A stretch of 64,000 nt of DNA, from the NCBI GenBank assembly GCA_965221775.1, contig CBDCSU010000006.1, positions 704,001-768,000 on the forward strand, written 5' to 3'. The notes beneath the pieces are model-generated. The model did not search any database. It was not told where the DNA came from and saw nothing but the letters and a program-made list of their open reading frames with translations. A program made the translations under genes and the position numbers. This document shows positions 41,155 through 50,184 of this stretch, in pieces (within the stretch, counting starts at the first letter, position 1; the number at the start of each line of letters is the position of its first letter). This DNA is from Candidatus Latescibacterota bacterium (GTDB lineage Bacteria > Latescibacterota > UBA2968 > UBA8231).

Positions 41155-42342
41155 ATGATCACCGAACTCAAGATCGAAGGCTTCAAGAGTTTTGGGTCCC
41201 CGGAAGAGACGATCGAGTTGGGGCCGCTCAACTTCGTGGTAGGCGCCAACGCATCCGGAAAGACAAACCTGCTCTCCGCCCTGCGATTCCTTCAGAACGC
41301 TGTAATCCATGACGTGTCCTATGCCGTGAGCGAGATGGGCGGCAATGCCGAAGTCAGGAACAAGCGCCTTCGCCAGCGCAGTGAACCGAAACCGGTCCGG
41401 CTGTCGCTGAAACTCGAGACGGAGTTCCAAGTCTCCCTGCCGGAAGACTCGAGCCAGAAGAAGGACCTGGATGTCGTGCGATCCTTCGAGTACCAGCTGG
41501 TGCTCGACCTGAGGAGTGATGCGACTCCCAGCATCGAAGCAGAATCCCTGAAAGCAGAACTCGTGCAGAACGGCAAGAGGCATGCCATTGGCCTGCAGAG
41601 GTCTGGCACCATGCTTGTCGTCATGGATCCGACAACGGGGTATGCCAGGGAGAGGACGCTTGCCGTCCCCGAGCAGGAACCAACTCGACTCGCTCTCGTT
41701 GGAGTCGGGTTCCTCCCAAGGCCGCGAACCATCCTCCGGGAGGAGATCGACGGCTGGAGATTCCACAACTTCATTCCAAGTGTTGCCAGGCAACCATATC
41801 GAGAGGAACCCGACGCTACCCTTGGTCCAGCAGGAGAGAGGCTTGCCGCGATCCTGCACGGGATGAGCGAGGAGGACCGAGCTTCGATCTCCCGGGAGCT
41901 TACGGCGATCGTCCCCGGACTCAAGATTGAAGACACCCTGGCCTTTCAGATCGTGGAGGACAAGGTCAGGGCCTCCATCATTCCTGCCTCCGTCTCAGAC
42001 GGTACCGTCCGGTTGCTCGCCCTGCTCGTCGTCACTACCTGGAGCGTTCAGGACTCCTCCCTCATCGCGATCGAGGAGCCGGAGAACGGCGTCCATCCTC
42101 ACCTGGCGGAATACCTCGTGGAGATCCTGAGGTCCGCCTCCGAGCAGAGTCAGGTCATCGTAACGACGCACTCCCCCGCCCTGCTCGATCACCTGGAACC
42201 TCAGGAGGTCATCCTCTGTGACAAGAAGGATGGATTCACGAAACTCCAGAGTGCATCGAGCGTCGCCGACATCGACCAGTTTCGAAAGCACTTCAGCCTT
42301 GGCGAGCTGTGGTCACAAGGTGCGGTCGGGGCCGTCCCGTGA
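41155..42342 (+). CDS. AAA_21/AbiEii-type ABC ATPase (defence-associated)
   Basis: MITELKIEGFKSF, VGANASGKTN, SDGT, IEEPENGVHP, QVIVTTHSP; visibly lower GC than neighbours. Confidence 0.88.
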   Translation: MITELKIEGFKSFGSPEETIELGPLNFVVGANASGKTNLLSALRFLQNAVIHDVSYAVSEMGGNAEVRNKRLRQRSEPKPVRLSLKLETEFQVSLPEDSSQKKDLDVVRSFEYQLVLDLRSDATPSIEAESLKAELVQNGKRHAIGLQRSGTMLVVMDPTTGYARERTLAVPEQEPTRLALVGVGFLPRPRTILREEIDGWRFHNFIPSVARQPYREEPDATLGPAGERLAAILHGMSEEDRASISRELTAIVPGLKIEDTLAFQIVEDKVRASIIPASVSDGTVRLLALLVVTTWSVQDSSLIAIEEPENGVHPHLAEYLVEILRSASEQSQVIVTTHSPALLDHLEPQEVILCDKKDGFTKLQSASSVADIDQFRKHFSLGELWSQGAVGAVP

Positions 42343-42378: not shown

Positions 42379-43200
42379 ATGCCCTTCACCGACGCCCAGA
42401 TCGAGCACTACAAGACCCACGGCTACGTGGCCGGTCCGCGCGTGCTCTCCGACGAGCAGATCGAGGAGCTGAAGGAGCGCATCGAGGACATCCTCCACGG
42501 GCGCGTGCCCTTCCCCAAACACCTGATGGGCGAGACCGTGGAGCAGTCCCGGGCCAAGGGACAACTCCCCTCGGTGAAGGTGGTCAACATCTTCCGCCGC
42601 GACCCCCTTTTCGCCGCCCTCGTCGGCAACGCGGCCATCAGCGCCCTGGCGCATCAGCTAATGCCCGGACCGGTACGCATGTGGGAGGACCAGATGATCT
42701 ACAAGCCTCCCCACGACGAGGAGACGGCCCTCGCCTGGCACCAGGACTACACCTTCTGGGACCACGTGGGGCCGGCCGACCTGGGCACCTGCTGGATCGC
42801 CCTCGACGACGCCACCGTCGACAACGGCTGCATGCACGTCATCCCCGGCAGCCACCTGTGGCCCATGCGCTACGACCGCGAGGACGCCGTCGTCGACGAC
42901 CCCCACTGGCTGCTGCGCCAGGAGGGGATCCCCGCTGGCGCCGACCTCACCCCCGTGCCCTGCGAGGTCCCGGCCGGGCACTGCCACTTCCACCACTGCC
43001 AGACCTTCCACGGCTCCTACGGCAACAGCACCGCCAACCCCCGCCGCAGCTACATCATGCACCTCATGCCCGGCCACACCCGGCGCCTAGGTGACAACTG
43101 GAACGAGCGGATGGGGAACGTGGAGACGGTGGGGGTGGGGGAGGTGCTGCAGGGGGAGGAGTATCCGGAGTTGGTCTTTCGGCCAGACCCCAAGGGGTAG
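42379..43200 (+). CDS. PhyH family dioxygenase
   Basis: MIYKPP, AWHQDY, DDATVDNGCMHVIPGSH, TFHGSYGN. Confidence 0.92.
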   Translation: MPFTDAQIEHYKTHGYVAGPRVLSDEQIEELKERIEDILHGRVPFPKHLMGETVEQSRAKGQLPSVKVVNIFRRDPLFAALVGNAAISALAHQLMPGPVRMWEDQMIYKPPHDEETALAWHQDYTFWDHVGPADLGTCWIALDDATVDNGCMHVIPGSHLWPMRYDREDAVVDDPHWLLRQEGIPAGADLTPVPCEVPAGHCHFHHCQTFHGSYGNSTANPRRSYIMHLMPGHTRRLGDNWNERMGNVETVGVGEVLQGEEYPELVFRPDPKG

Positions 43201-43487
43201 AAGCCTTCGCCGGGTGAGTCCCCGTTCTCACCCACCTGGATCTCGGCAGTCTACCGAAGGAATCCGCACGTCGTCCGCACACAGGCGCCCTCGGGATGGA
43301 GTCGAACAGCCTCCGGGGCGTACGAACGCCCCGAGACCGACGGACTCGCAGGGTCCCTGGAGCACTCCAGGATTCCAGACGACGACTACGCCCATGGGCG
43401 CCCCGGCAGGGGTCGGTGCTTCCGTGTCCGTGAGAGAGGCGGCGCTCGGGATCTGAATTGTAGAGGTCGCTTTTCCAACTTCTGGCC

Positions 43488-43516
43488 TTGCTTTTTCATA
43501 TCGCATGTTCTAAATT
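43488..43516 (+). promoter_or_regulatory. Candidate sigma70 promoter of the CBASS operon
   Basis: TTGCTT-N17-TAAATT in an AT-rich stretch about 160 nt upstream of 43679. Confidence 0.4.
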
Positions 43517-43678
43517 CGCTCACGCCCTCTCCCCGGACCAAGGCATCCTCGGCAGCCAGAAGCAAATAGGGGCCCCAGCCGTGGGCAACAAAGTCCTCAC
43601 AGTGAGACCGAACGCCGGATATCTGTCTCCCCCCATGACCTCACCCTCCCCCTTGACTGACTCTAGGGAGATCTGCCC

Positions 43679-44914
43679 ATGCCGGTGAGCAAGGAGGTAT
43701 TGGCGGGACGACTCCGGGCTGCCCGTGAGGCCTGCCAGATGAAGCAGGAGGATGCGGCGAACCATCTCGGGGTGTCCCGATCCACAATTGTACAAATGGA
43801 GCTCGGCAACCGCGCCGTCACAAGCCTCGAGCTCGATGGACTCGCCTTCCTCTATGGACGCGACATCCGCGAGTTCGTCGCCGACGAGTTCCGCTCGGAA
43901 GATGTCCTATTGGCTCTCTTTCGCCGACATCCAGAGGTGTCCGAACACAGCGAACTGCAGGCAGTGCTCCAACAGGCTATGGCGCTTGGCAGAGAGATCA
44001 CGTCTCTAGAACGCCTCCTCGGGGTCGAGCGAGACCCTTCTGCGCTGCCTGTCTACCAGCACCAGCCGCCTCAGACCAAGTGGGAGGCGGTACAGCAAGG
44101 AGAACGAATCGCCGGAGAAGAGCGCCGCCGCATTGGTCTAGGCAACTCACCACTCCAGAACGTGGCGGAGGTGCTCGATGGCCAAGGCGTCCGCACGGCA
44201 CAGCTTGGCCTTCCTGAAGACGTTTCGGGACTCACGCTCTTTGACCTGGAAGCCGGCGCATTTGTCGTCGTCAACAACGCCCTGCCTAGCCACAGCCGCG
44301 TACGCCGGCGTTTCTCCTGCGCGCATGAGTACTGCCATGTGCTCCTCGACCGTGACCAGAAGGGAACCATCAGCCGGGCGAGTGAGCGCCACAGCCTCAT
44401 GGAAGTGCGTGCCAACGCCTTTGCCGCAGGTTTCTTGATGCCCAGGACCGGGATTGAGGAGTTCCTTGCCCGCATGGGCAAGGGATGGGTAATCCGCCAG
44501 GCGGAGGTGTACGACGAAGGAGAGCCTCAGCGGGTTCAGGTCCGTCCCGGAAGTCAAGCGATCCAGATGCACGACTTGGTGCTCCTGGCACACTATCTCG
44601 GGGTGAGCCGGATCGCCGCACTCTACCGCCTGAAGAACCTCCGATTTCTGACCGAGCCCGAACTGGAGAGGCTTAAGGAGCAGGAAGACACTGGGATGGG
44701 TAAGGCCCTCCAGGATCTCCTTGATCTTCCTGAGTTCGACGACGAGGATGCTCGCAACGAGTCTAGCCGTCGGTTCGTAGCCCTTGCCCTCGACGCTCTA
44801 CGCCGTGAAGAAATCACACGCGCTAAGTTCGAGGAACTGGCACGGATGGTGAATATCGCTACTGAGAGGCTTGACAACCTTCTCGCCCAAGTGGCTCCTC
44901 GGCATCACGAATGA
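43679..44914 (+). CDS. XRE HTH + ImmA/IrrE family Zn metallopeptidase
   Basis: RLRAAREACQMKQEDAANHLGVSRSTIVQMELGNR (HTH); RRRFSCAHEYCHVLL and EVRANAFAAGFLMP. Confidence 0.93.
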   Translation: MPVSKEVLAGRLRAAREACQMKQEDAANHLGVSRSTIVQMELGNRAVTSLELDGLAFLYGRDIREFVADEFRSEDVLLALFRRHPEVSEHSELQAVLQQAMALGREITSLERLLGVERDPSALPVYQHQPPQTKWEAVQQGERIAGEERRRIGLGNSPLQNVAEVLDGQGVRTAQLGLPEDVSGLTLFDLEAGAFVVVNNALPSHSRVRRRFSCAHEYCHVLLDRDQKGTISRASERHSLMEVRANAFAAGFLMPRTGIEEFLARMGKGWVIRQAEVYDEGEPQRVQVRPGSQAIQMHDLVLLAHYLGVSRIAALYRLKNLRFLTEPELERLKEQEDTGMGKALQDLLDLPEFDDEDARNESSRRFVALALDALRREEITRAKFEELARMVNIATERLDNLLAQVAPRHHE

Positions 44915-45432
44915 CGAATGCCATGACCTCTACCCCGCCCAGTGAGGATCCTGGGATCCACAAGAGGACCACTGTGATTCTCGACCCCGCTCTAGCCCTC
45001 CATCTGGCCGATGCCGGACAACTCAGCCAACTCGGCTCGATAGCAGGTTGGGAATTTGCAGTGCCATCTCAGTTGGTCCAAGAGATGGGGAACAAAGTTG
45101 GCGCCAGCGCGATTGAGGCCGCGGTCCAAGCCGGCGACCTGCGTAGTGAGTTGAGCACCGAGGTCCGAGAACTCGGCTTCTATGCGGAATTCAGACAACG
45201 CATGGGGCAGGCTGAGGCCACTTGCCTAGCGATGGCCCAAGCTCGAGGGTGGAGTCTTGCTTCCGGCGACCATGGTCAGGCCTTTCGTCGAATTGTCCAG
45301 GATCAGCTTGGCTCTGACCGGCTTATTGATGGCAAGACCATCAGAGATCTCGCGTGTCGGTCAAGAATCGCCACTGGCACGGAGCTTCAAGTCCAACAGA
45401 ACGCTGAGAAGAGGGTGGGATCGCAACCGTGA
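44911..45432 (+). CDS. PIN-like domain protein (DUF3368-like), degenerate active site
   Basis: TVILD.., MGQAEATCLAMAQARGWSLASGD (compare LGxGEAxxxALA..xxxDD); ATGA overlap. Confidence 0.65.
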   Translation: MTNAMTSTPPSEDPGIHKRTTVILDPALALHLADAGQLSQLGSIAGWEFAVPSQLVQEMGNKVGASAIEAAVQAGDLRSELSTEVRELGFYAEFRQRMGQAEATCLAMAQARGWSLASGDHGQAFRRIVQDQLGSDRLIDGKTIRDLACRSRIATGTELQVQQNAEKRVGSQP

Positions 45433-46610
45433 GTCCAAGAAGGGAGCTGAAGCAAGTCGGCGCACTCTTCAAACCATGGGGGCGAGAAGTCCCCACGAAG
45501 ACCCGTGTGTTCCTGTTTGTACGTGCTGCAGGGAGGTGCCAATTCGATGGCTGCAATCGCTACCTCCTCGAACACCATCTCACGCACGCCGATGGCATCT
45601 TCGCTCAGATGGCGCACATCTGCGCGTTCAGCAAGCGAGGTCCGCGCGGTCGGCAAGGTGGGCAGGCCGTACATGACGTCTCGAACCTCATACTCCTGTG
45701 CGCGGAATGTCATAAGTTGGTGGACGATCACCCGGAGGAATACACGACAGACGTGCTCAGGAAGCACAAACTAGCTCACGAGAACCGGGTCTTCATGCTC
45801 ACCGGCACCCAGCCTGATCGCCACACAGTTGCGCTCGTCCTGTTGGCCCGAATTGCTGGGAGAACGGTGTCTGTCTCCCTACCTGAGATGCAACAGGCTG
45901 TTGCTCCTCGCTACATCGGGGCCCAGGATGTGATTACGGTCGATCTCACCGCGATTCCGGACCATCCCTCGTCGGAATACTGGAAGTCGACAGCTAGCGC
46001 CATCCAAGCCAAAGTCCAGCTCCTGTACGAACAGACCTTCGAGCGCGGTCCCATCCGCCATCTGTCTGTCTTCGCCTTGGGTGCCATCCCGCTTCTCGTG
46101 CATCTCGGAGCCTGCCTCAGCGACAAAGTACCCCTTACTCTCTATCAGCGGCATCGAGATGCCGATGACTGGAAGTGGAAGGAAGTGGGCGAGACCGTGA
46201 GTTACGAATTCAGGACCCTTCAGCGGGGGTCCTGCTCCACCTCGGTGGCCCTCTTGCTCTCCCTTAGCGGCCGGATCCAGCCTGATGATTTGCCAGCAGT
46301 GATCGACGCCAGCTTCACTACCTACGAGATCACGCTTGCCAGCGTTGAGCCGACGCCCAACTTCCTAGACCTTGAGGCATCCCTTCAAGCATTTCAGGAG
46401 GTCTTCATGAGCAGCGTGCGCCACTTGGTGGCATGCCATCCAGAACTTCAAACAATCCACTTGTTTCCCGCCGTTCCTGCGCCAGTAGCAATCTCAGTCG
46501 GTCGTGATCTCATGCCCAAACGAGACCCTGGGGTGCTCGTCTACGACTACGATAGGCGTGTAGGCGGCTTCACACCAACCTTGGAGGTTAACTACCATGG
46601 AAGCGAATGA
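45429..46610 (+). CDS. cap5: CBASS effector, HNH nuclease-SAVED (Cap5-like)
   Basis: AAGRCQFDGC..AHICAFSKRGPRG..NLILLCAECHKLVD (HNH/Zn); SAVED motifs LSVFALGAIPLLVHLG, LYQRHR, IHLFPAVPAPVAISVGR. Confidence 0.9.
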   Translation: MSPRRELKQVGALFKPWGREVPTKTRVFLFVRAAGRCQFDGCNRYLLEHHLTHADGIFAQMAHICAFSKRGPRGRQGGQAVHDVSNLILLCAECHKLVDDHPEEYTTDVLRKHKLAHENRVFMLTGTQPDRHTVALVLLARIAGRTVSVSLPEMQQAVAPRYIGAQDVITVDLTAIPDHPSSEYWKSTASAIQAKVQLLYEQTFERGPIRHLSVFALGAIPLLVHLGACLSDKVPLTLYQRHRDADDWKWKEVGETVSYEFRTLQRGSCSTSVALLLSLSGRIQPDDLPAVIDASFTTYEITLASVEPTPNFLDLEASLQAFQEVFMSSVRHLVACHPELQTIHLFPAVPAPVAISVGRDLMPKRDPGVLVYDYDRRVGGFTPTLEVNYHGSE

Positions 46611-47511
46611 CTACCTCGAAGCGATCCTGGCCCTACAAACTCTGAAAGAGGGTGGTCCAGAACTCGCCGATCTCAGAAAATGCCGCAAGGATATCGAGGC
46701 TACTCTGCGAGGTCACTTCTCAAGGCCTACTCCCTCGATCCGCTGGGGAGGGTCCGTGGCCAAGCGCACGATAATAAGGGATGCCTATGACGGGGATATG
46801 ACCTGCTACTTCCCGCATGAGGTCGAGTCCGGTAGCACTCTGGAGGAGATATACGACGACGTCGACCAGGCCCTCCGCGAGGAATACGAAGTCGAACGGA
46901 AAGGTTCTGCCCTGCGGGTCAAGGACCCTTCTATGAAGGAGGCCACCGGCTTCGCTCAAGACCTTCATATCGATGTGGTGCCCGGACGATTCACGAGCGA
47001 GGAGGAGGACGATGTCTTCCTACACCGCACCACTGGAGACAAGCAGAGACTGAAGACCAACCTGCAAGTTCATATCGATCACATCAAGGATAGCGGCGTC
47101 ACATCCGCAATTCGCTTGATGAAGCTCTGGAACGTCCGCAATCAAGTCGCCGCCAAGACCTTTGTCCTAGAGCTTCTCGTGGTCAAGCTGCTGAAGCAGA
47201 AGAGGGTCGAAGACCTTGCGACCCAGCTTCGACATGTTTGGACGGAGTTCCGCGACAGAGCCGACGATCTCGCTGTGGAGGACCCCGCTAACCCGACCGG
47301 CAACGACTTGACGCCGGTCTTGGACGAAGTGCGCCAGCGGCTGTCGAGCGTAGCGGAAACGACGCTCTACCTTCTTGAGAGTGCTGGGTGGGAGTCAGTC
47401 TATGGGCCCATAGATGACGACGATGAAGACGCCGAAGGGCGCAAGTCGGCGCTCAAGGCTGCGGCCTTGAATGTCAGGAGTCCCACGAAGCCCTGGCTGC
47501 CTGATGCATGA
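46597..47511 (+). CDS. CBASS cGAS/DncV-like nucleotidyltransferase (CD-NTase)
   Basis: GGSVAKRT..YDGD (GS..DxD), third Asp in HIDVVPGR, IRLMKLW, FVLELL, EDPANP; adjacent to a SAVED effector. Confidence 0.9.
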   Translation: MEANDYLEAILALQTLKEGGPELADLRKCRKDIEATLRGHFSRPTPSIRWGGSVAKRTIIRDAYDGDMTCYFPHEVESGSTLEEIYDDVDQALREEYEVERKGSALRVKDPSMKEATGFAQDLHIDVVPGRFTSEEEDDVFLHRTTGDKQRLKTNLQVHIDHIKDSGVTSAIRLMKLWNVRNQVAAKTFVLELLVVKLLKQKRVEDLATQLRHVWTEFRDRADDLAVEDPANPTGNDLTPVLDEVRQRLSSVAETTLYLLESAGWESVYGPIDDDDEDAEGRKSALKAAALNVRSPTKPWLPDA

Positions 47512-48179
47512 CTGCATGGCATCAGCGAAACCCAGAGATGGTCGAGGAAATCCGGGCTGGCCTTCGTAGAGGCTACCCGAACCTTCACCTCTTTCTCGAG
47601 CCTGACCACAGCAGCGAGGTCCGAGGTACGTACCCCGTACTCTCACCTGTTGGCCGCGTACTAGATCGCTACCAAGTGTCAATCCAGTTACCAGTAGGCT
47701 TTCCGAGGAGCCTGCCCGTAGTCCGTGAGACCGGAGGCAGAATCCCATGGAAACCCGACTATCACGTCAACGCTAACGGCACAGCGTGTGTACTACTTCC
47801 AGATGACCGCTGGCGGTGCTTCCCAGAGACCGCACCATTCGTCCAATTTCTCGATGGACCCGTGCACGACTACTTCCTCGGGCAGAGTCTGGTCGCTGTG
47901 GGGGAGGACTGGCCCTTCGGCCAATGGAGTCATGGGCGAAAGGGCATAGCTGAGTACTACAGATGGTTGTTTGACGCAGACGATCCTTCCACAGTCGTGG
48001 GATTCCTAAAGATTCTTGCGAAGCTCAACTTGAAGCAGCACTTGCCTTGCCCTTGCGGAAGCGGCCAGAAGATCCGCAAGTGCTGCCGGGCACGCATTGG
48101 TGATCTCCGCAGTAAGATCCACCCCACCGTTGCACGTAAGGCGTTGCGGAACCTCCAGTCGAGTCCCTCTATCAACTGA
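47508..48179 (+). CDS. Prokaryotic E2 (UBC-like) protein with C-terminal SEC-C Zn motif
   Basis: YQVSIQLPVGFPRSLPVV..YHVNANGTACVLL (E2 HPN-like motif plus Cys); CPCGSGQKIRKCC; ATGA overlap. Confidence 0.8.
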   Translation: MTAWHQRNPEMVEEIRAGLRRGYPNLHLFLEPDHSSEVRGTYPVLSPVGRVLDRYQVSIQLPVGFPRSLPVVRETGGRIPWKPDYHVNANGTACVLLPDDRWRCFPETAPFVQFLDGPVHDYFLGQSLVAVGEDWPFGQWSHGRKGIAEYYRWLFDADDPSTVVGFLKILAKLNLKQHLPCPCGSGQKIRKCCRARIGDLRSKIHPTVARKALRNLQSSPSIN

Positions 48180-48331
48180 ACTCAGGGCTGTGGAACTGTG
48201 TCATACTATCAGGCGAGAGTCGTGATACGCCAGACTCTCTCTAGTGGAGGACCAGAAACGTGTTGCTTGGGCAGGCCGGGTGGATCACTTGGAGGCCGCG
48301 AGATCACTGCCCCCTTGACTGGTCACTCCCC

Positions 48332-48982
48332 TCACACCCGCTCCCCCCGCGGCTCCGCCTTCCCATGAGTGTGATCCCACAGGTGTCCCCGCCGCCCCTC
48401 CCCTTCCATGGTGGTCTCGAAGTAGACGGCCCGCACCGGCTCATGCACCATCGGGAAGTCGTGGTGGTGCCCCATGCCGGTGGCCACGCAGTCGCCTGAG
48501 GCGACCTCGTAACTCTTCCCCTCCGAGACGGCGACTCCGCGGCCGGCGAAGAGAATCCAGTACTCGTCGCAGTCGTGGAAGTGGCAGTCGAAGGTGGTCC
48601 GCTTCTCGTAGGCGACCGGATCCCCCCGGTCGACGCGGTCGCTGTCGGCTGCCTCCGCCACCGAGAACAACCCCGAGCCGCCGACCTCGTCGCCCCAGTG
48701 GCCGGCCATGCGGATCAGGGTGGCGTCCTCGGCGACCTCGAGGATGCTGAACCCGCCCTCCTGCTCACCTGCCGGCAGGTCGATGTTGGCTCCCTCGCCG
48801 GCGGCCAGCTCCCGGCCGGCCGCGGAGACGGTGCAGGCTCCCTCTCCGACGATCAGTTTCTCCCTGGGGCCGGCGCGGCCGAAGTCGTAAGGGGCGGCTC
48901 CTGCTGTCAGGCGGACGATGTCGAACTGGCGCATTTCGCACCAGGGGGGCGCCTGGCCGGGTCCCGCGTGAAAGACCGGCAT
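48332..48982 (-). CDS. Cupin domain protein
   Basis: CHFHDCDEYWIL..MGHHHDF. Confidence 0.8.
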   Translation of the reverse strand: MPVFHAGPGQAPPWCEMRQFDIVRLTAGAAPYDFGRAGPREKLIVGEGACTVSAAGRELAAGEGANIDLPAGEQEGGFSILEVAEDATLIRMAGHWGDEVGGSGLFSVAEAADSDRVDRGDPVAYEKRTTFDCHFHDCDEYWILFAGRGVAVSEGKSYEVASGDCVATGMGHHHDFPMVHEPVRAVYFETTMEGEGRRGHLWDHTHGKAEPRGERV

Positions 48983-49035: not shown

Positions 49036-50184
49036 GTGAGTGATGGGGTGATTTCAGACCAGGAACTCGTCGCCGGGTGCAGGCAGGGAAGCCAGGACGC
49101 CTTCCGCCGGCTCGTGGACAAGCACTGGGCGGGTGTGGTCAGGGCCGTGGCTCCTGTTCTCGGAGATACCGACGACGTCGAGGACGCCGCGCAGGAGGCG
49201 TTCATCCGGGCCTGCCGGCGCCTCGGCGAGCTGCAGGACCCGGACCGGCTCCCGGCCTGGCTCCACGCCATCGCCCGCAACGCCGCCCGGAAGATGCTGC
49301 GCCAGAGGCGGCTCGAGCAGCTGCGCCTGCCGGAATACGAACTGAGCCATGGTGCGCCCGACCCGGACCTCGGGACATCCCTCCAATACAGGGACCTGAA
49401 GGGCCTGGTGAACAGCCTGGCGCCGCCGGACCGGGCCGTGGTCACCCTGTTCTACCTGGCCGGGATGGAGCTCAACCGGATCGCGGAGCGGCTGCACATA
49501 CCCGCCGGCACCGCCAAGAGCCGGCTTCACAGATCGCGCCGACAGATGCGAGAAAGGATGCGGAACATGGCACCGAAGACCGAAGAGCGCACCGGCTCCC
49601 CCGAGAGCGCCCCCCGCGACGTCATCGGGGGGATGCGGGGCCTCATCAACTGGGAGGTGGTTCCCGTGGACGAGGGCCTCACCTCCTGGCAGCCCCCCGC
49701 GTGGTCCGACCGGGACGCCCTGGAGAAGACTTGGCGGATGGAGGGCCACGCCATCGTCGGCGAGAGCGGCGAGCCCGGCGAGGAGCCGCCGCCGCTGATC
49801 GCCGGCGAGCCGACCTGGACCGACTACGAGCTCTCCTTCCTGATGACGCCGATCTCAGGCGGGAACGCGCAGGTCGCCTTCCGCATCTCCGCGGACGAGC
49901 GCAGCTACTACCTGTTCGACTTCCTCCTCGGGTGGCAGGCCGTGGGCCTCTACCGGGTGATCGACGGCCGCCTCACCAAGCTCAGCGTGGTGAACCACGC
50001 CCTTCACCGGGGCCAGGAGTACGAGGTCCAGGTCGCCGCCCGGGGCGCCTCGCTCACTTCGTACGTCGACGGCAAGCTGGTCAACCAGCTCACCGACGAG
50101 ACCTTCCGCATGGGCGCCTTCGGCCTGATGGTGTGGGAGTGCAGCACCGCGTTCCGGGACGTGCGCTACCGGCTGCTGCACTGA
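49036..50184 (+). CDS. ECF sigma factor with C-terminal DUF1080-like (ConA/lectin-fold) extension
   Basis: sigma2 DVEDAAQEAFIRA..WLHAIARN; sigma4 IAERLHIPAGTAKSRLHRSR; C-terminal WTDYELSF..YVDGKLV..AFRDVRYR. Confidence 0.85.
   Translation: MSDGVISDQELVAGCRQGSQDAFRRLVDKHWAGVVRAVAPVLGDTDDVEDAAQEAFIRACRRLGELQDPDRLPAWLHAIARNAARKMLRQRRLEQLRLPEYELSHGAPDPDLGTSLQYRDLKGLVNSLAPPDRAVVTLFYLAGMELNRIAERLHIPAGTAKSRLHRSRRQMRERMRNMAPKTEERTGSPESAPRDVIGGMRGLINWEVVPVDEGLTSWQPPAWSDRDALEKTWRMEGHAIVGESGEPGEEPPPLIAGEPTWTDYELSFLMTPISGGNAQVAFRISADERSYYLFDFLLGWQAVGLYRVIDGRLTKLSVVNHALHRGQEYEVQVAARGASLTSYVDGKLVNQLTDETFRMGAFGLMVWECSTAFRDVRYRLLH

Follow-up and report, generated by a model that had tools for sequence, protein, structure and literature searches.

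An HTH-M78 peptidase and PIN gene pair at the head of an E2-only CBASS locus in a Latescibacterota genome

Gene content and layout of the locus

Five open reading frames on the plus strand, listed as co-directional and overlapping, occupy positions 43679-48179 of the window, that is, the whole stretch of 64,000 nucleotides that was analysed: gene 1 (43679-44914, 411 amino acids), gene 2 (44911-45432, 173 amino acids), gene 3 (45429-46610, 393 amino acids), gene 4 (46597-47511, 304 amino acids), and gene 5 (47508-48179, 223 amino acids). Genes 1 and 2 overlap by 4 nt (ATGA, read directly in the sequence), genes 2 and 3 by 4 nt, with the GTG start of gene 3 lying over the TGA, genes 3 and 4 by 14 nt, and genes 4 and 5 by 4 nt. 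The GC content of positions 43500-48499 is 0.57-0.63 as opposed to 0.69-0.75 in both flanks, all five genes being low, and the island looks acquired. Overlapping co-directional genes in lower-GC DNA had been described in the original prediction, and this description holds, with one caveat about the start of gene 2 that is given below. No terminator-like site was found inside the five-gene run, and none of the open reading frames of the island was seen to encode an integrase or a transposase. Neighbouring genes encode a cupin-like protein, an ECF sigma factor, and an AAA_14/DUF4143 ATPase.

Ahead of gene 1, a repeat search (family D1) and reading of the sequence identified the plus-strand direct repeat GCTTTT(C/T)CA at 43469-43498. 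The 9-nt element occurs there twice with a spacing of 21 nt, within a patch richer in AT that lies about 180-210 nt before the gene. This patch is a weak candidate for an operator/promoter region; a search of the leader gave neither a sigma-70-like promoter nor a terminator. A promoter-like site with 9 of 12 matches is located at 46569-46598 immediately before gene 4, and the CBASS could in part have a promoter of its own; about 0.9 sites of this quality are expected by chance.

Gene 1 encodes an Xre-type HTH domain (residues ~5-67) fused to a CapP/IrrE-like M78 zinc peptidase domain (~170-267), with a linker carrying an ALFR motif (79-82) and an all-helical C-terminal domain (297-403). Matches were obtained with the Pfam models HTH_3 (1.1e-8) and Peptidase_M78 (2.4e-15) and with the PADLOC models RmrA (5.8e-26, the best of 16 RmrA models matched) and capP (2.2e-14), while an NCBIfam repressor/antitoxin model matched below its cut-off. 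The HEXXH residues H216, E217, and H220, the third ligand E242, and R82 of the ALFR motif are invariant in 21 homologues. The best sequence match in the PDB was 9vzy_A (3.7e-5). The best Foldseek matches of the AF2 model (pLDDT 83.1) were CapP (7t5t, 8.5e-5), IrrE (3dte), and ssDNA-bound PprI (8sln), and the CapH N-terminal domain (7t5u) stood at rank 48. Gene 1 is thus likely a repressor-antitoxin of the CapH-CapP-fusion-like or VapB52-like kind.

Gene 2 has no direct match in Pfam, PADLOC, or NCBIfam, and was assigned as a PIN-fold (VapC-like) nuclease by its family and its fold. Its relatives comprise 229 representatives at E<=1e-3; 20 of 61 aligned family members match Pfam PIN (PF01850) at E<=1, the best at 1.1e-4. 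All top Foldseek matches of its AF2 model (pLDDT 89.8) are PIN proteins, including 2mdt, HARP RNase P, and VapC. The protein had been called a degenerate PIN, a label that does not fit this confident fold and the retention of D25, E58, E102, and D120, of which D25 and E58 are invariant in the family. The sole near-invariant acid that is changed is at position 119, where 57 of 61 family members have Asp and the PIN of the window has Gly. Several further consensus positions are also changed and the C-terminal RFxMxFxSF motif of the family is missing, which points to a divergent family member that may be weakened or inactive. Conservation is lacking over the first 18 residues, and P0001, the closest relative, begins opposite M5, so the true start may be at 44923, in which case genes 1 and 2 would be separated by 8 nt instead of overlapping.

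Gene 2 is likely the toxin partner of gene 1. The predicted complex of the two proteins scored 0.78 (best control, 0.02), with at least 86% of contacts in common between runs and a partner pLDDT of at least 76; 58 of 80 solved complexes, and 2 of 110 mismatched pairs, came up to that mark. The score may simply reflect likeness, since a like complex, VapBC52, has already been solved. In the predicted interface, residues 3-8, 46-67, and 374-386 of gene 1 face the PIN near E58 and at residues 97-104.

By their sequences, genes 3 to 5 are a CBASS of the ordinary E2-only ("short type II") kind, and all their catalytic motifs are intact. Gene 3 encodes an effector with an N-terminal HNH endonuclease and a C-terminal SAVED sensor of cyclic oligonucleotides (Pfam SAVED 2.9e-40, HNH_2 1.8e-6; PADLOC endonuclease effector PDLC00746 9.8e-139); the genome has no other SAVED match, and the H...N...H motif of this protein is kept in 12 of 12 clade members. 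Effectors of this kind are known as Cap5, and E2-only cores as "type II short". Gene 4 encodes the CD-NTase, or cyclic oligonucleotide synthase (PADLOC cyclase PDLC00803 5.2e-66; Pfam SMODS 9.5e-4, below cut-off), in which the clade keeps both GS...DxD and the third Asp (IDVVPG). Its last residue is not conserved in the Cap5-cyclase-E2 clade, and no sequence relative at E<=0.01 was found in the PDB. Gene 5 encodes a Cap2-like protein with the E2 part only (PADLOC E2 PDLC00861 1.1e-60, profile positions 2-219 of 232) and a C-terminal SEC-C-like CPCGSG..CC zinc knuckle, for which the SEC-C motif match is below cut-off (0.0031). All 14 sequences keep the H-x-N...C motif (HVNANGTAC), and the 13 that extend far enough all keep the CxC..CC motif. 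No E1 or JAB gene was found at the locus including the flanking genes, the sole Prok-JAB match of the genome being on a different contig. The predicted E2-only core was thereby borne out, as were all five gene and domain assignments, by Pfam and PADLOC or, for gene 2, by PIN family and fold.

Distribution of the leader pair and its cargo

Within the phylum of the window, the PIN family occurs in 65 of 168 genomes, and in the 20 wide loci fetched the PIN was directly preceded by a gene-1-like gene in every case. Outside this phylum, 59 of the 80 best relatives of gene 1 are followed by a member of the same PIN family, and another 2 have no room for a PIN gene. About half of the pairs head varied defence cargo, including CBASS of types I-III, Dsr2, Druantia, SoFic, and others, and pair and cargo lie close together, 0 to ~130 nt apart in many loci.

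PADLOC recognised a defence gene directly downstream on the same strand in 9 of 11 wide loci scanned from the phylum of the window and gave a match in 12 of 16 loci from other phyla; these fractions are not unbiased rates, because loci were chosen for a close same-strand neighbour, and related genomes among them are not independent. In the phylum of the window, the same-strand cargo comprised patatin with a cyclase; a cyclase with E2 and PDC-M32; a cyclase with HORMA, TRIP13, and NucC; a cyclase with 4TM; PDC-M71A/B; Dsr2; a TIR-like protein; an E1-like protein; and E2. In other phyla, PIN-bearing leaders were followed by Cap5 with a cyclase and E1-E2, by DruE, by a cyclase, by SoFic, or by a TmtA-like protein, and gene-1-like leaders that have no PIN were followed by HmaA, by DrmD with DrmMI, or by DUF4238. 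One further locus, outside the 16 (L098), has a type III CBASS recognised by its similarity to another locus (L059).

Eleven loci of the Cap5-cyclase-E2 clade, the window included, were informative. An M78-peptidase regulator adjoins the core in 7 of these, in both same-strand and divergent orientations, and the HTH-M78 and PIN pair itself in 5. The complete order of gene 1, gene 2, Cap5, cyclase, and E2 recurs in two loci from other lineages (L003 and L009), and in two others (L001 and L006) the pair is divergent from Cap5 at 110-250 bp, the classical position of a regulator. These comparisons, together with the many other defence operons headed by the same pair, lend support to the original prediction that the leader may couple stress-triggered proteolysis to CBASS. 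No M78 gene was found nearby in four of the eleven loci (L008, L011, L012, and L013), so the module is not obligatory for this clade.

Comparison with known systems

CapP cleaves CapH on ssDNA, which de-represses CBASS (Lau et al. 2022, bioRxiv 10.1101/2022.04.27.489752). Like that pair, gene 1 combines an HTH repressor and an IrrE-family HEXXH zinc peptidase adjoining a CBASS, and its model matches CapP best and the CapH N-terminal domain with its N-terminus. Unlike it, HTH and peptidase are fused, a PIN gene lies between regulator and CBASS, and the leader is overlapping and on the CBASS strand, whereas the CapH/CapP cases of that report are all stated to be upstream and on the opposite strand. 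Gene 1 also lacks the cysteine switch and GAF domain of CapP and has an all-helical C-terminal domain. The same report mentions 15 CBASS systems with an apparent capH-capP fusion, which may include loci like the present one, and a DISARM locus with a vapC-like gene and a CapH-CapP fusion.

In the presence of ssDNA, VapB52 of Mycobacterium tuberculosis cuts its own chain at an FR motif, and the PIN tRNase VapC52 is released (NAR 2026, PMC13273310). The architecture is shared: an N-terminal Xre-like HTH, a middle IrrE/CapP-like HEXXH peptidase, a C-terminal domain, and then a PIN toxin, with the FR motif at the HTH-peptidase junction (F81-R82 in gene 1) and the antitoxin N-terminal domain touching the toxin, as is predicted for genes 1 and 2. 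The differences are that VapBC52 is a stand-alone pair and the present one heads a CBASS operon, that gene 1 lacks the Cys of the cysteine switch, and that the PIN of the window has the Gly described above. Sequence similarity is low; the best PDB match of gene 1, 9vzy_A, may be VapB52.

Systems in which HTH-DUF955 (COG2856) and PIN-like proteins form three-component or fused toxin-antitoxin systems were predicted earlier, with the families COG2405, DUF4411, PIN_14, PIN_20, and PIN_26, and the protease was proposed to degrade the HTH of its own protein under stress (Matelska et al. 2017, PMC5499597). Both arrangements have a PIN-like gene that follows a fused HTH-DUF955 gene; a link to CBASS or to swappable cargo does not appear in the available portion of that account. 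In RosmerTA, which is anti-phage, the antitoxin RmrA is an ImmA protease and has varied toxins as partners (Ernits et al. 2023, PMC10440598). Gene 1 shares with it the matches to the RmrA models, yet gene 2 matches no PADLOC model, RmrT included, at E<=0.01, and RosmerTA is a stand-alone pair. Anti-phage RosmerTA (RmrT/RmrA) systems were reportedly also described by Millman et al. in 2022.

The regulators CapK and CapS and the VapKSC system use a GHKL kinase and a STAS protein (EMBO J 2026, PMC13373217). There, too, a sensor of ssDNA or DNA damage either lifts the repression of an immune operon next to it or sets a VapC-like PIN toxin free, although the proteins are unrelated and the two outputs belong to separate operon types, whereas both appear combined here. 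The core of the locus resembles E2-only type II CBASS with Cap5 in its CD-NTase, its E2 without E1 or JAB, and its HNH-SAVED protein, and differs in the leader module. The original prediction had taken the whole architecture to be undescribed. The gene 1 and gene 2 kind of module is already known (predicted in 2017, seen beside DISARM in 2022, and as VapBC52 in 2026). The same-strand translational coupling of the pair to CBASS and the general context of a leader with swappable cargo appear to be new, neither having been found in print in our literature search.

Interpretation of the locus

We consider it fairly probable that the locus is one horizontally acquired operon of two modules, an alarm pair and an E2-only type II CBASS. 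By analogy with its characterised relatives, the pair is most likely a damage-sensing repressor/antitoxin leader, a VapBC52-like or CapH-CapP-fusion-like alarm module. In resting cells, gene 1 would probably repress the promoter upstream of itself and hold the PIN nuclease inactive through its HTH domain and C-terminal helices. As in these relatives, ssDNA from phage replication or DNA damage would switch the peptidase on, which would then cleave its own protein near the conserved ALFR linker, with two outputs: the whole operon would be de-repressed and the PIN RNase, presumably toxic like its counterparts, would be freed. In the second module, the CD-NTase, primed or regulated by E2, would make a cyclic oligonucleotide of a kind suggested by characterised systems, and its binding to the SAVED domain of Cap5 would lead the HNH domain to degrade DNA, resulting in abortive infection.

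The pair often stands alone, and genes 1 and 2 could be a self-contained toxin-antitoxin or RosmerTA-like system that autoregulates only itself, with a separate CBASS packed beside it only by defence-gene clustering and compaction. This independence, which we regard as unlikely, would agree with a complete and widespread two-gene unit for which the next sizeable gene is on the opposite strand or far off in 23 of the 44 cross-phylum loci that have the PIN and enough flanking sequence. Among the 20 wide loci from the phylum of the window, 9, all outside the PADLOC scan, looked likewise stand-alone. The RmrA and NCBIfam matches of gene 1, the stand-alone function of VapBC52, and the four clade loci without an M78 gene are also in its favour. 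It is opposed by the 4-nt overlap of genes 2 and 3 with no terminator-like site between them, the recurrent gene order, the divergent regulator positions, and the short gaps to cargo. At orthologous chromosomal sites, moreover, the flank and gene 1 are 86-98% identical and the cargo differs, and nucleotide similarity stops within ~7-30 nt of the PIN stop codon; the cargo is exchanged right at this codon while the leader stays.

The sharp junction at the PIN 3' end, with a conserved leader and variable cargo at one chromosomal site, would also suit a pair that does no infection sensing for its cargo, and that mainly stabilises a costly cargo by killing cells that lose the island or acts as the conserved anchor for recombination at a hotspot of cargo exchange. 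Stabilisation is the classical role of toxin-antitoxin systems, and the low-GC island looks acquired. We nevertheless judge this improbable. Gene-1-like leaders without a PIN also head defence operons (HmaA, DrmD with DrmMI of DISARM, DUF4238, and a UvrD-like helicase), which makes the HTH-peptidase, and not the toxin, the common denominator. The closest characterised peptidases are ssDNA-activated sensors, and the open reading frames of the island show no integrase or transposase.

Finally, the PIN is translationally coupled to Cap5 and occurs in five of the eleven clade loci, yet that it is an integral CBASS component, a second effector or RNA-processing factor for the CD-NTase in place of a toxin partner of gene 1, is very improbable, given that the same PIN family follows gene-1-like genes at loci without any CBASS, that it always travels with gene 1 even when the pair is divergent from CBASS (L001, L006, L103, and others), and that its predicted interface is with gene 1.

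The gene cluster and its CBASS core

Five co-directional genes lie on the forward strand in the ORF list, encoding an HTH-M78 peptidase (gene 1, 43679-44914, 411 aa), a PIN protein (gene 2, 44911-45432, 173 aa), an HNH-SAVED protein (gene 3, 45429-46610, 393 aa), a CD-NTase (gene 4, 46597-47511, 304 aa) and an E2 protein (gene 5, 47508-48179, 223 aa). Successive genes overlap by 4, 4, 14 and 4 nt, with ATGA at 44911-44914 confirmed by reading the sequence, and GC content is 0.57-0.63 over 43500-48499 compared with 0.69-0.75 on either side, so the original prediction of five overlapping genes in lower-GC DNA stands. Gene 2 may alternatively start at its fifth codon (44923), because its first 18 residues are unconserved and its closest relative, P0001, begins at the residue aligned with M5; this start would leave an 8-nt gap between genes 1 and 2 and no overlap. 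A promoter/terminator scan detected no terminator in 43100-48600, and hence none within the cluster. It returned one promoter-like site where 0.9 were expected by chance, and its outcome is uninformative for this organism. The five-gene cluster is real and most likely forms one operon.

The flanks code for a cupin-like protein, an ECF sigma factor and an AAA_14/DUF4143 ATPase. The gene at 49036-50184 (+) combines an ECF-type sigma factor (Sigma70_r2, r4) with a C-terminal 3-keto-disaccharide hydrolase-like domain (4.4e-5, under the cut-off). A short way upstream of the cluster, in its own low-GC patch (0.60-0.62), a gene at 41155-42342 (+) encodes an AAA_21/SMC-like ATPase (Pfam 4.3e-32; PADLOC HEC-01A 9.3e-59) and possibly acts alone as a further defence gene; next to it downstream lies a PhyH dioxygenase gene of higher GC (42379-43200), and an obvious partner gene is absent.

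Gene 3 matches Pfam SAVED (2.9e-40) and HNH_2 (1.8e-6) and the PADLOC endonuclease effector PDLC00746 (9.8e-139), and is the sole SAVED match in the genome. Gene 4 matches the PADLOC cyclase PDLC00803 (5.2e-66), with Pfam and NCBIfam matches under their cut-offs, and gene 5 matches PADLOC E2 models (best PDLC00861, 1.1e-60). A CD-NTase search with one genome per species yielded 13 related loci (L001-L013), and the order Cap5-cyclase-E2 is maintained in all those with sequence on that side. The HNH motif of gene 3 is kept in 12/12 clade members, the nucleotidyltransferase motifs GS...DxD...D of gene 4 (GGS, YDGDM, IDVVPG) are conserved in the clade, and the E2 motif HxN...C of gene 5 is kept in 14/14 sequences. 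The C-terminal SEC-C-like zinc knuckle of the E2 protein (CPCGSG..CC, residues 174-202) is found in all 13 sequences reaching that region. Searching the PDB by sequence gave no match for gene 4 and a single one for gene 5, the SEC-C peptide of the YchJ C-terminus (9l6b).

Neither E1 nor JAB (Cap3) is encoded in the operon, the flanking genes are unrelated, and the single Prok-JAB match in the genome lies on another contig (C4). From these domains, flanks and the JAB location, genes 3-5 are therefore assigned to E2-only CBASS with an HNH-SAVED effector, a known kind to which we take the names Cap5-type and "type II short" to apply. The predicted core with E2 and without E1 or JAB is thus borne out by the PADLOC and Pfam matches and the retained motifs, and is in itself ordinary. 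Gene 4 and the cyclases of L001-L013 share a conserved TKPW motif near the C-terminus (47440-47511 in gene 4), and their final residue, taken from mechanical ORF ends, varies over 14 sequences (A, A, A, A, E, A, E, F, S, G, N, L, R, R); the variation would be notable should type II CBASS require conjugation through the cyclase C-terminus. A short-type CBASS of such kind is mentioned by Kruger et al. 2024.

The predicted repressor-peptidase and its PIN partner

Gene 1 carries an N-terminal Xre HTH domain (HTH_3, 1.1e-8) and an M78/IrrE peptidase domain (Peptidase_M78, 2.4e-15). Among 21 aligned homologues, H216, E217, H220 and E242 (HEXXH and third ligand) are invariant, as is R82 of the ALFR motif (residues 79-82) directly C-terminal of the HTH, in which L80 is at least 90% conserved; no conserved cysteine that could serve as a cysteine switch lies between HEXXH and E242. 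The AlphaFold model (mean pLDDT 83.1) was best matched in Foldseek by CapP of Thauera (7t5t, E 8.5e-5), IrrE (3dte/3dti) and PprI (8slm/8sln), the latter in free and ssDNA-bound forms, and its N-terminus resembles repressors of the Xre type, among them the N-terminal domain of CapH (7t5u, rank 48).

These matches point to several known systems. CapP is an ssDNA-activated peptidase that cuts the repressor CapH and induces CBASS; an apparent capH-capP fusion was described in 15 CBASS systems, a Nocardia DISARM locus combines a vapC-like gene with a CapH-CapP fusion, one third of CapPs have the cysteine-switch loop, and the cases discussed there are all on the opposite strand (Lau et al. 2022, 10.1101/2022.04.27.489752). 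Like CapH and CapP together, gene 1 unites an HTH repressor with an IrrE-family HEXXH zinc peptidase. Unlike these two genes, which are upstream and divergent, gene 1 is fused, lies on the same strand and overlaps the next gene, and it lacks both the cysteine switch and the GAF domain of CapP, since its residues 297-403 are all-helical in the model.

Toxin-antitoxin systems offer a second comparison. HTH-DUF955 proteins paired with PIN-like toxins, with self-degradation of the HTH, were predicted by Matelska et al. 2017 (PMC5499597). A VapB52-type antitoxin with ssDNA cuts itself at an FR motif and frees a tRNA-cutting PIN toxin, VapC52, which also adds to phage defence (PMC13273310). Genes 1 and 2 share with VapBC52 the three-part antitoxin (HTH, HEXXH peptidase, C-terminal domain) followed by a PIN gene, and the FR motif at the HTH-peptidase junction, which here lies within ALFR. 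RosmerTA systems combine ImmA-protease antitoxins with varied toxins (Ernits et al. 2023, PMC10440598), and 16 PADLOC models of their antitoxin RmrA (HTH and ImmA peptidase) match gene 1 (best 5.8e-26), as does the PADLOC capP model (2.2e-14). Strict membership of genes 1-2 in RosmerTA was nonetheless ruled out, because gene 2 matches no RmrT toxin model, or indeed any PADLOC model at E<=0.01. CapK/CapS is built on a different damage sensor, which either regulates an operon or, joined by a VapC-like toxin, forms a toxin-antitoxin system (PMC13373217).

Gene 2 gave no direct family match to domain profiles, and a word-based homologue search found P0001 as its single relative; a full HMMER scan recovered 229 representative relatives at E<=1e-3. 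We aligned the window protein with 60 near full-length sequences picked from the 150 matches listed (n=61), of which 20 match the Pfam PIN profile PF01850 at E<=1 (best 1.1e-4) and 11 match PIN_6. Every top Foldseek match of the gene 2 model (pLDDT 89.8) is a PIN protein, among them 2mdt, HARP RNase P and several VapC toxins, and this fold and family membership rule out a degenerate non-PIN filler. D25 and E58 are invariant in the alignment, and E102 and D120 are present; the active-site residues of VapC52 are D6, E48, D99 and E117 (PMC13273310). At position 119, gene 2 and the 80%-identical P0001 have G where 57/61 family members have D, and the family C-terminal motif RFxMxFxSF is absent from gene 2. 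The term "degenerate PIN" in the original prediction is overstated: gene 2 is a divergent PIN that is not clearly dead.

Complex prediction with both alignments gave genes 1 and 2 a score of 0.78, against 0.02 for the best control, a mark attained by 58/80 solved complexes and 2/110 mismatched pairs. The runs have at least 86% of contacts in common, with a partner pLDDT of at least 76, and place the HTH and last helices of gene 1 over the PIN face with E58 and residues 97-104. The predicted model supports binding of gene 1 to gene 2; the score may, however, reflect mere likeness, because the similar VapBC52 complex has already been solved.

Conservation of the pair and exchange of the genes behind it

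The PIN profile was found in 65 of the 168 genomes of the window's phylum. In 20 of the 30 short loci from this search (the window included), those with strong PIN matches, a gene-1-like gene adjoins PIN; one of the other ten is truncated and nine, the weakest matches, have no such gene. The 20 wide loci taken from around the best-scoring PIN places all carry a homologue of gene 1 (E 1e-60 to 1e-78) immediately 5' of PIN. An alignment search with gene 1 across all phyla confirmed at least 468 relatives among 569 candidates. The best 80 of these (46-56% identity) come from Acidobacteriota, Myxococcota, several Proteobacteria, Gemmatimonadota, Planctomycetota, Verrucomicrobia, Actinomycetota, Chloroflexota and Rhodothermales; the same PIN family comes next in 59, two leave no room for a PIN gene, and 19 have something else.

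Beside the CBASS clade itself the pair is less constant. Upstream sequence was sufficient in 10 of the 13 related loci, and thus in 11 with the window. The pair is on the same strand in the window, in L009 and in L003, where a contig end cuts it, and divergent in L001 and L006, the latter with a PIN that matches PF01850 only weakly (E 0.0059). L005 has an M78 protein on the same strand without PIN, and L007 a divergent sigma-70-like gene and M78 gene, an arrangement also reported by Lau et al. 2022 (10.1101/2022.04.27.489752); no M78 regulator lies near L008, L011, L012 or L013. The HTH-M78 and PIN module is a recurring accessory of this CBASS clade, not a core part. The original prediction had asked whether homologues of the CD-NTase and E2 keep the ImmA-PIN pair; 5 of the 11 loci of the CBASS clade do.

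PADLOC was run on the same-strand genes directly after PIN in 11 of the 20 wide loci, chosen for a close, low-GC3 neighbour; the nine left out had opposite-strand or housekeeping-like neighbours. Nine of the 11 gave matches: patatin and cyclase (L053), cyclase and PDC-M32A/B (L054), cyclase, HORMA, TRIP13 and NucC (L059), a cyclase fragment and 4TM (L061), PDC-M71A/B (L055), Dsr2 (L046), a TIR-like protein (L057), an E1-like protein (L063), and E2 (L058), the last preceded by ORFs that resemble the L053 patatin and cyclase N-terminally (the PADLOC match is on E2 only). L056 and L062 gave none; the L062 gene is a pentapeptide-repeat membrane protein.

Closely related loci reveal where these genes are exchanged. 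L053 and L062 are 98% identical in the flank gene, 97% in gene 1 and 85% in PIN, and their first cargo genes are unrelated; nucleotide similarity of 93% breaks off within PIN, 7-13 nt from its 3' end. A portion of the L062 pentapeptide-repeat gene recurs farther downstream in L053 (79% over 680 nt), and the L053 CBASS therefore looks inserted directly after PIN. L054, L057 and L058 agree at 94-95% in the flank gene, 86-94% in gene 1 and 75-77% in PIN, and their first cargo genes have no mutual similarity; L054 and L057 part about 30 nt inside PIN, and L054 and L058 have about 1.7 kb in common downstream (89%). In both sets, similarity ends about 7-30 nt from the PIN stop codon at the same chromosomal site and behind the same leader pair. 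Farther downstream, the gene of a pentapeptide-repeat membrane protein and a large gene of methyltransferase-like type recur and form a constant frame.

Chance adjacency of the pair to the CBASS genes is countered by the overlap of genes 2 and 3, by the order recurring in L003 and L009, and by the cargo swapped after PIN.

The best 80 cross-phylum loci were compared locally with verified cargo proteins from the window's phylum. Cap5 lies directly after PIN in L077 and a type III CBASS after PIN in L098, and in ten loci, including Thauera sinica and several Burkholderiales, a CD-NTase and/or patatin gene lies upstream of the pair in divergent orientation. A PADLOC scan of 20 proteins from 16 further, hand-chosen loci gave matches in 12. 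Leaders with PIN stand with cyclase and E1-E2 (L077), DruE (L108), cyclase (L102), SoFic (L127), TmtA-like (L090), NERD (L096) and a weak E1 (L066), and leaders without PIN with HmaA (L080), DrmD and DrmMI (L097), UvrD-like (L081), DUF4238 (L094) and a weak match (L089). By a crude rule, of the 44 loci that have PIN and sufficient flank, 21 carry a same-strand gene of at least 150 aa close to the pair and 23 carry none, and the pair is thus a stand-alone unit and a leader alike. In L103 (Thauera sinica), L096, L112, L114, L118, L132 and others, from several Betaproteobacteria and other bacteria, the pair is divergent from a CD-NTase and patatin CBASS; L102 and L112 have a second cyclase immediately after PIN.

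A possible alarm module ahead of defence genes

A question under active study is how bacteria hold suicidal defence systems in check until the need arises. The operon in the window is most likely an alarm module of repressor-protease and PIN, similar to VapBC52 and to the CapH-CapP fusions, that is co-transcribed with an E2-only CBASS, and by analogy with these relatives it would act as they do. In the literature covered, we found neither a same-strand, overlapping HTH-M78, PIN and CBASS operon nor a leader with swappable cargo; supplementary tables may hold such loci, and Table S1 of Lau et al. 2022 may already list some of this type.

Our findings suggest that one compact module can do two jobs, release of a nuclease toxin and activation of a downstream immune operon, and that it is re-used in evolution as a constant front end ahead of varying defence cargo. 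If so, it would provide a simple, testable model of damage-gated expression of E2-only CBASS, account for the VapC-like gene that accompanies CapH-CapP fusions, and supply a genomic flag for new defence genes, namely the gene right after this PIN. What merits pursuit is this wider pattern of a constant sensor-toxin leader followed by defence cargo that can be exchanged.

In its fullest form, which we put forward tentatively and consider rather more apt to fail than to hold, the pair would be a portable dual-output alarm leader across many phyla, marking a site of cassette exchange. A single ssDNA-triggered self-cleavage event would free the PIN RNase, and the same cleavage would turn on the defence operon inserted right after the PIN stop codon, with CBASS types I-III, Dsr2, Druantia, SoFic and unnamed cargo exchanged behind a constant sensor. 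The unannotated genes in this slot would then be predicted new defence genes. Candidates for such undescribed genes are those directly after PIN in L085, L092, L125 and L142, for which PADLOC gave no match at E<=1e-5. The L085 gene (9833-14476, + strand) encodes a protein of 1547 aa, and the slot genes of the other three loci are large or medium.
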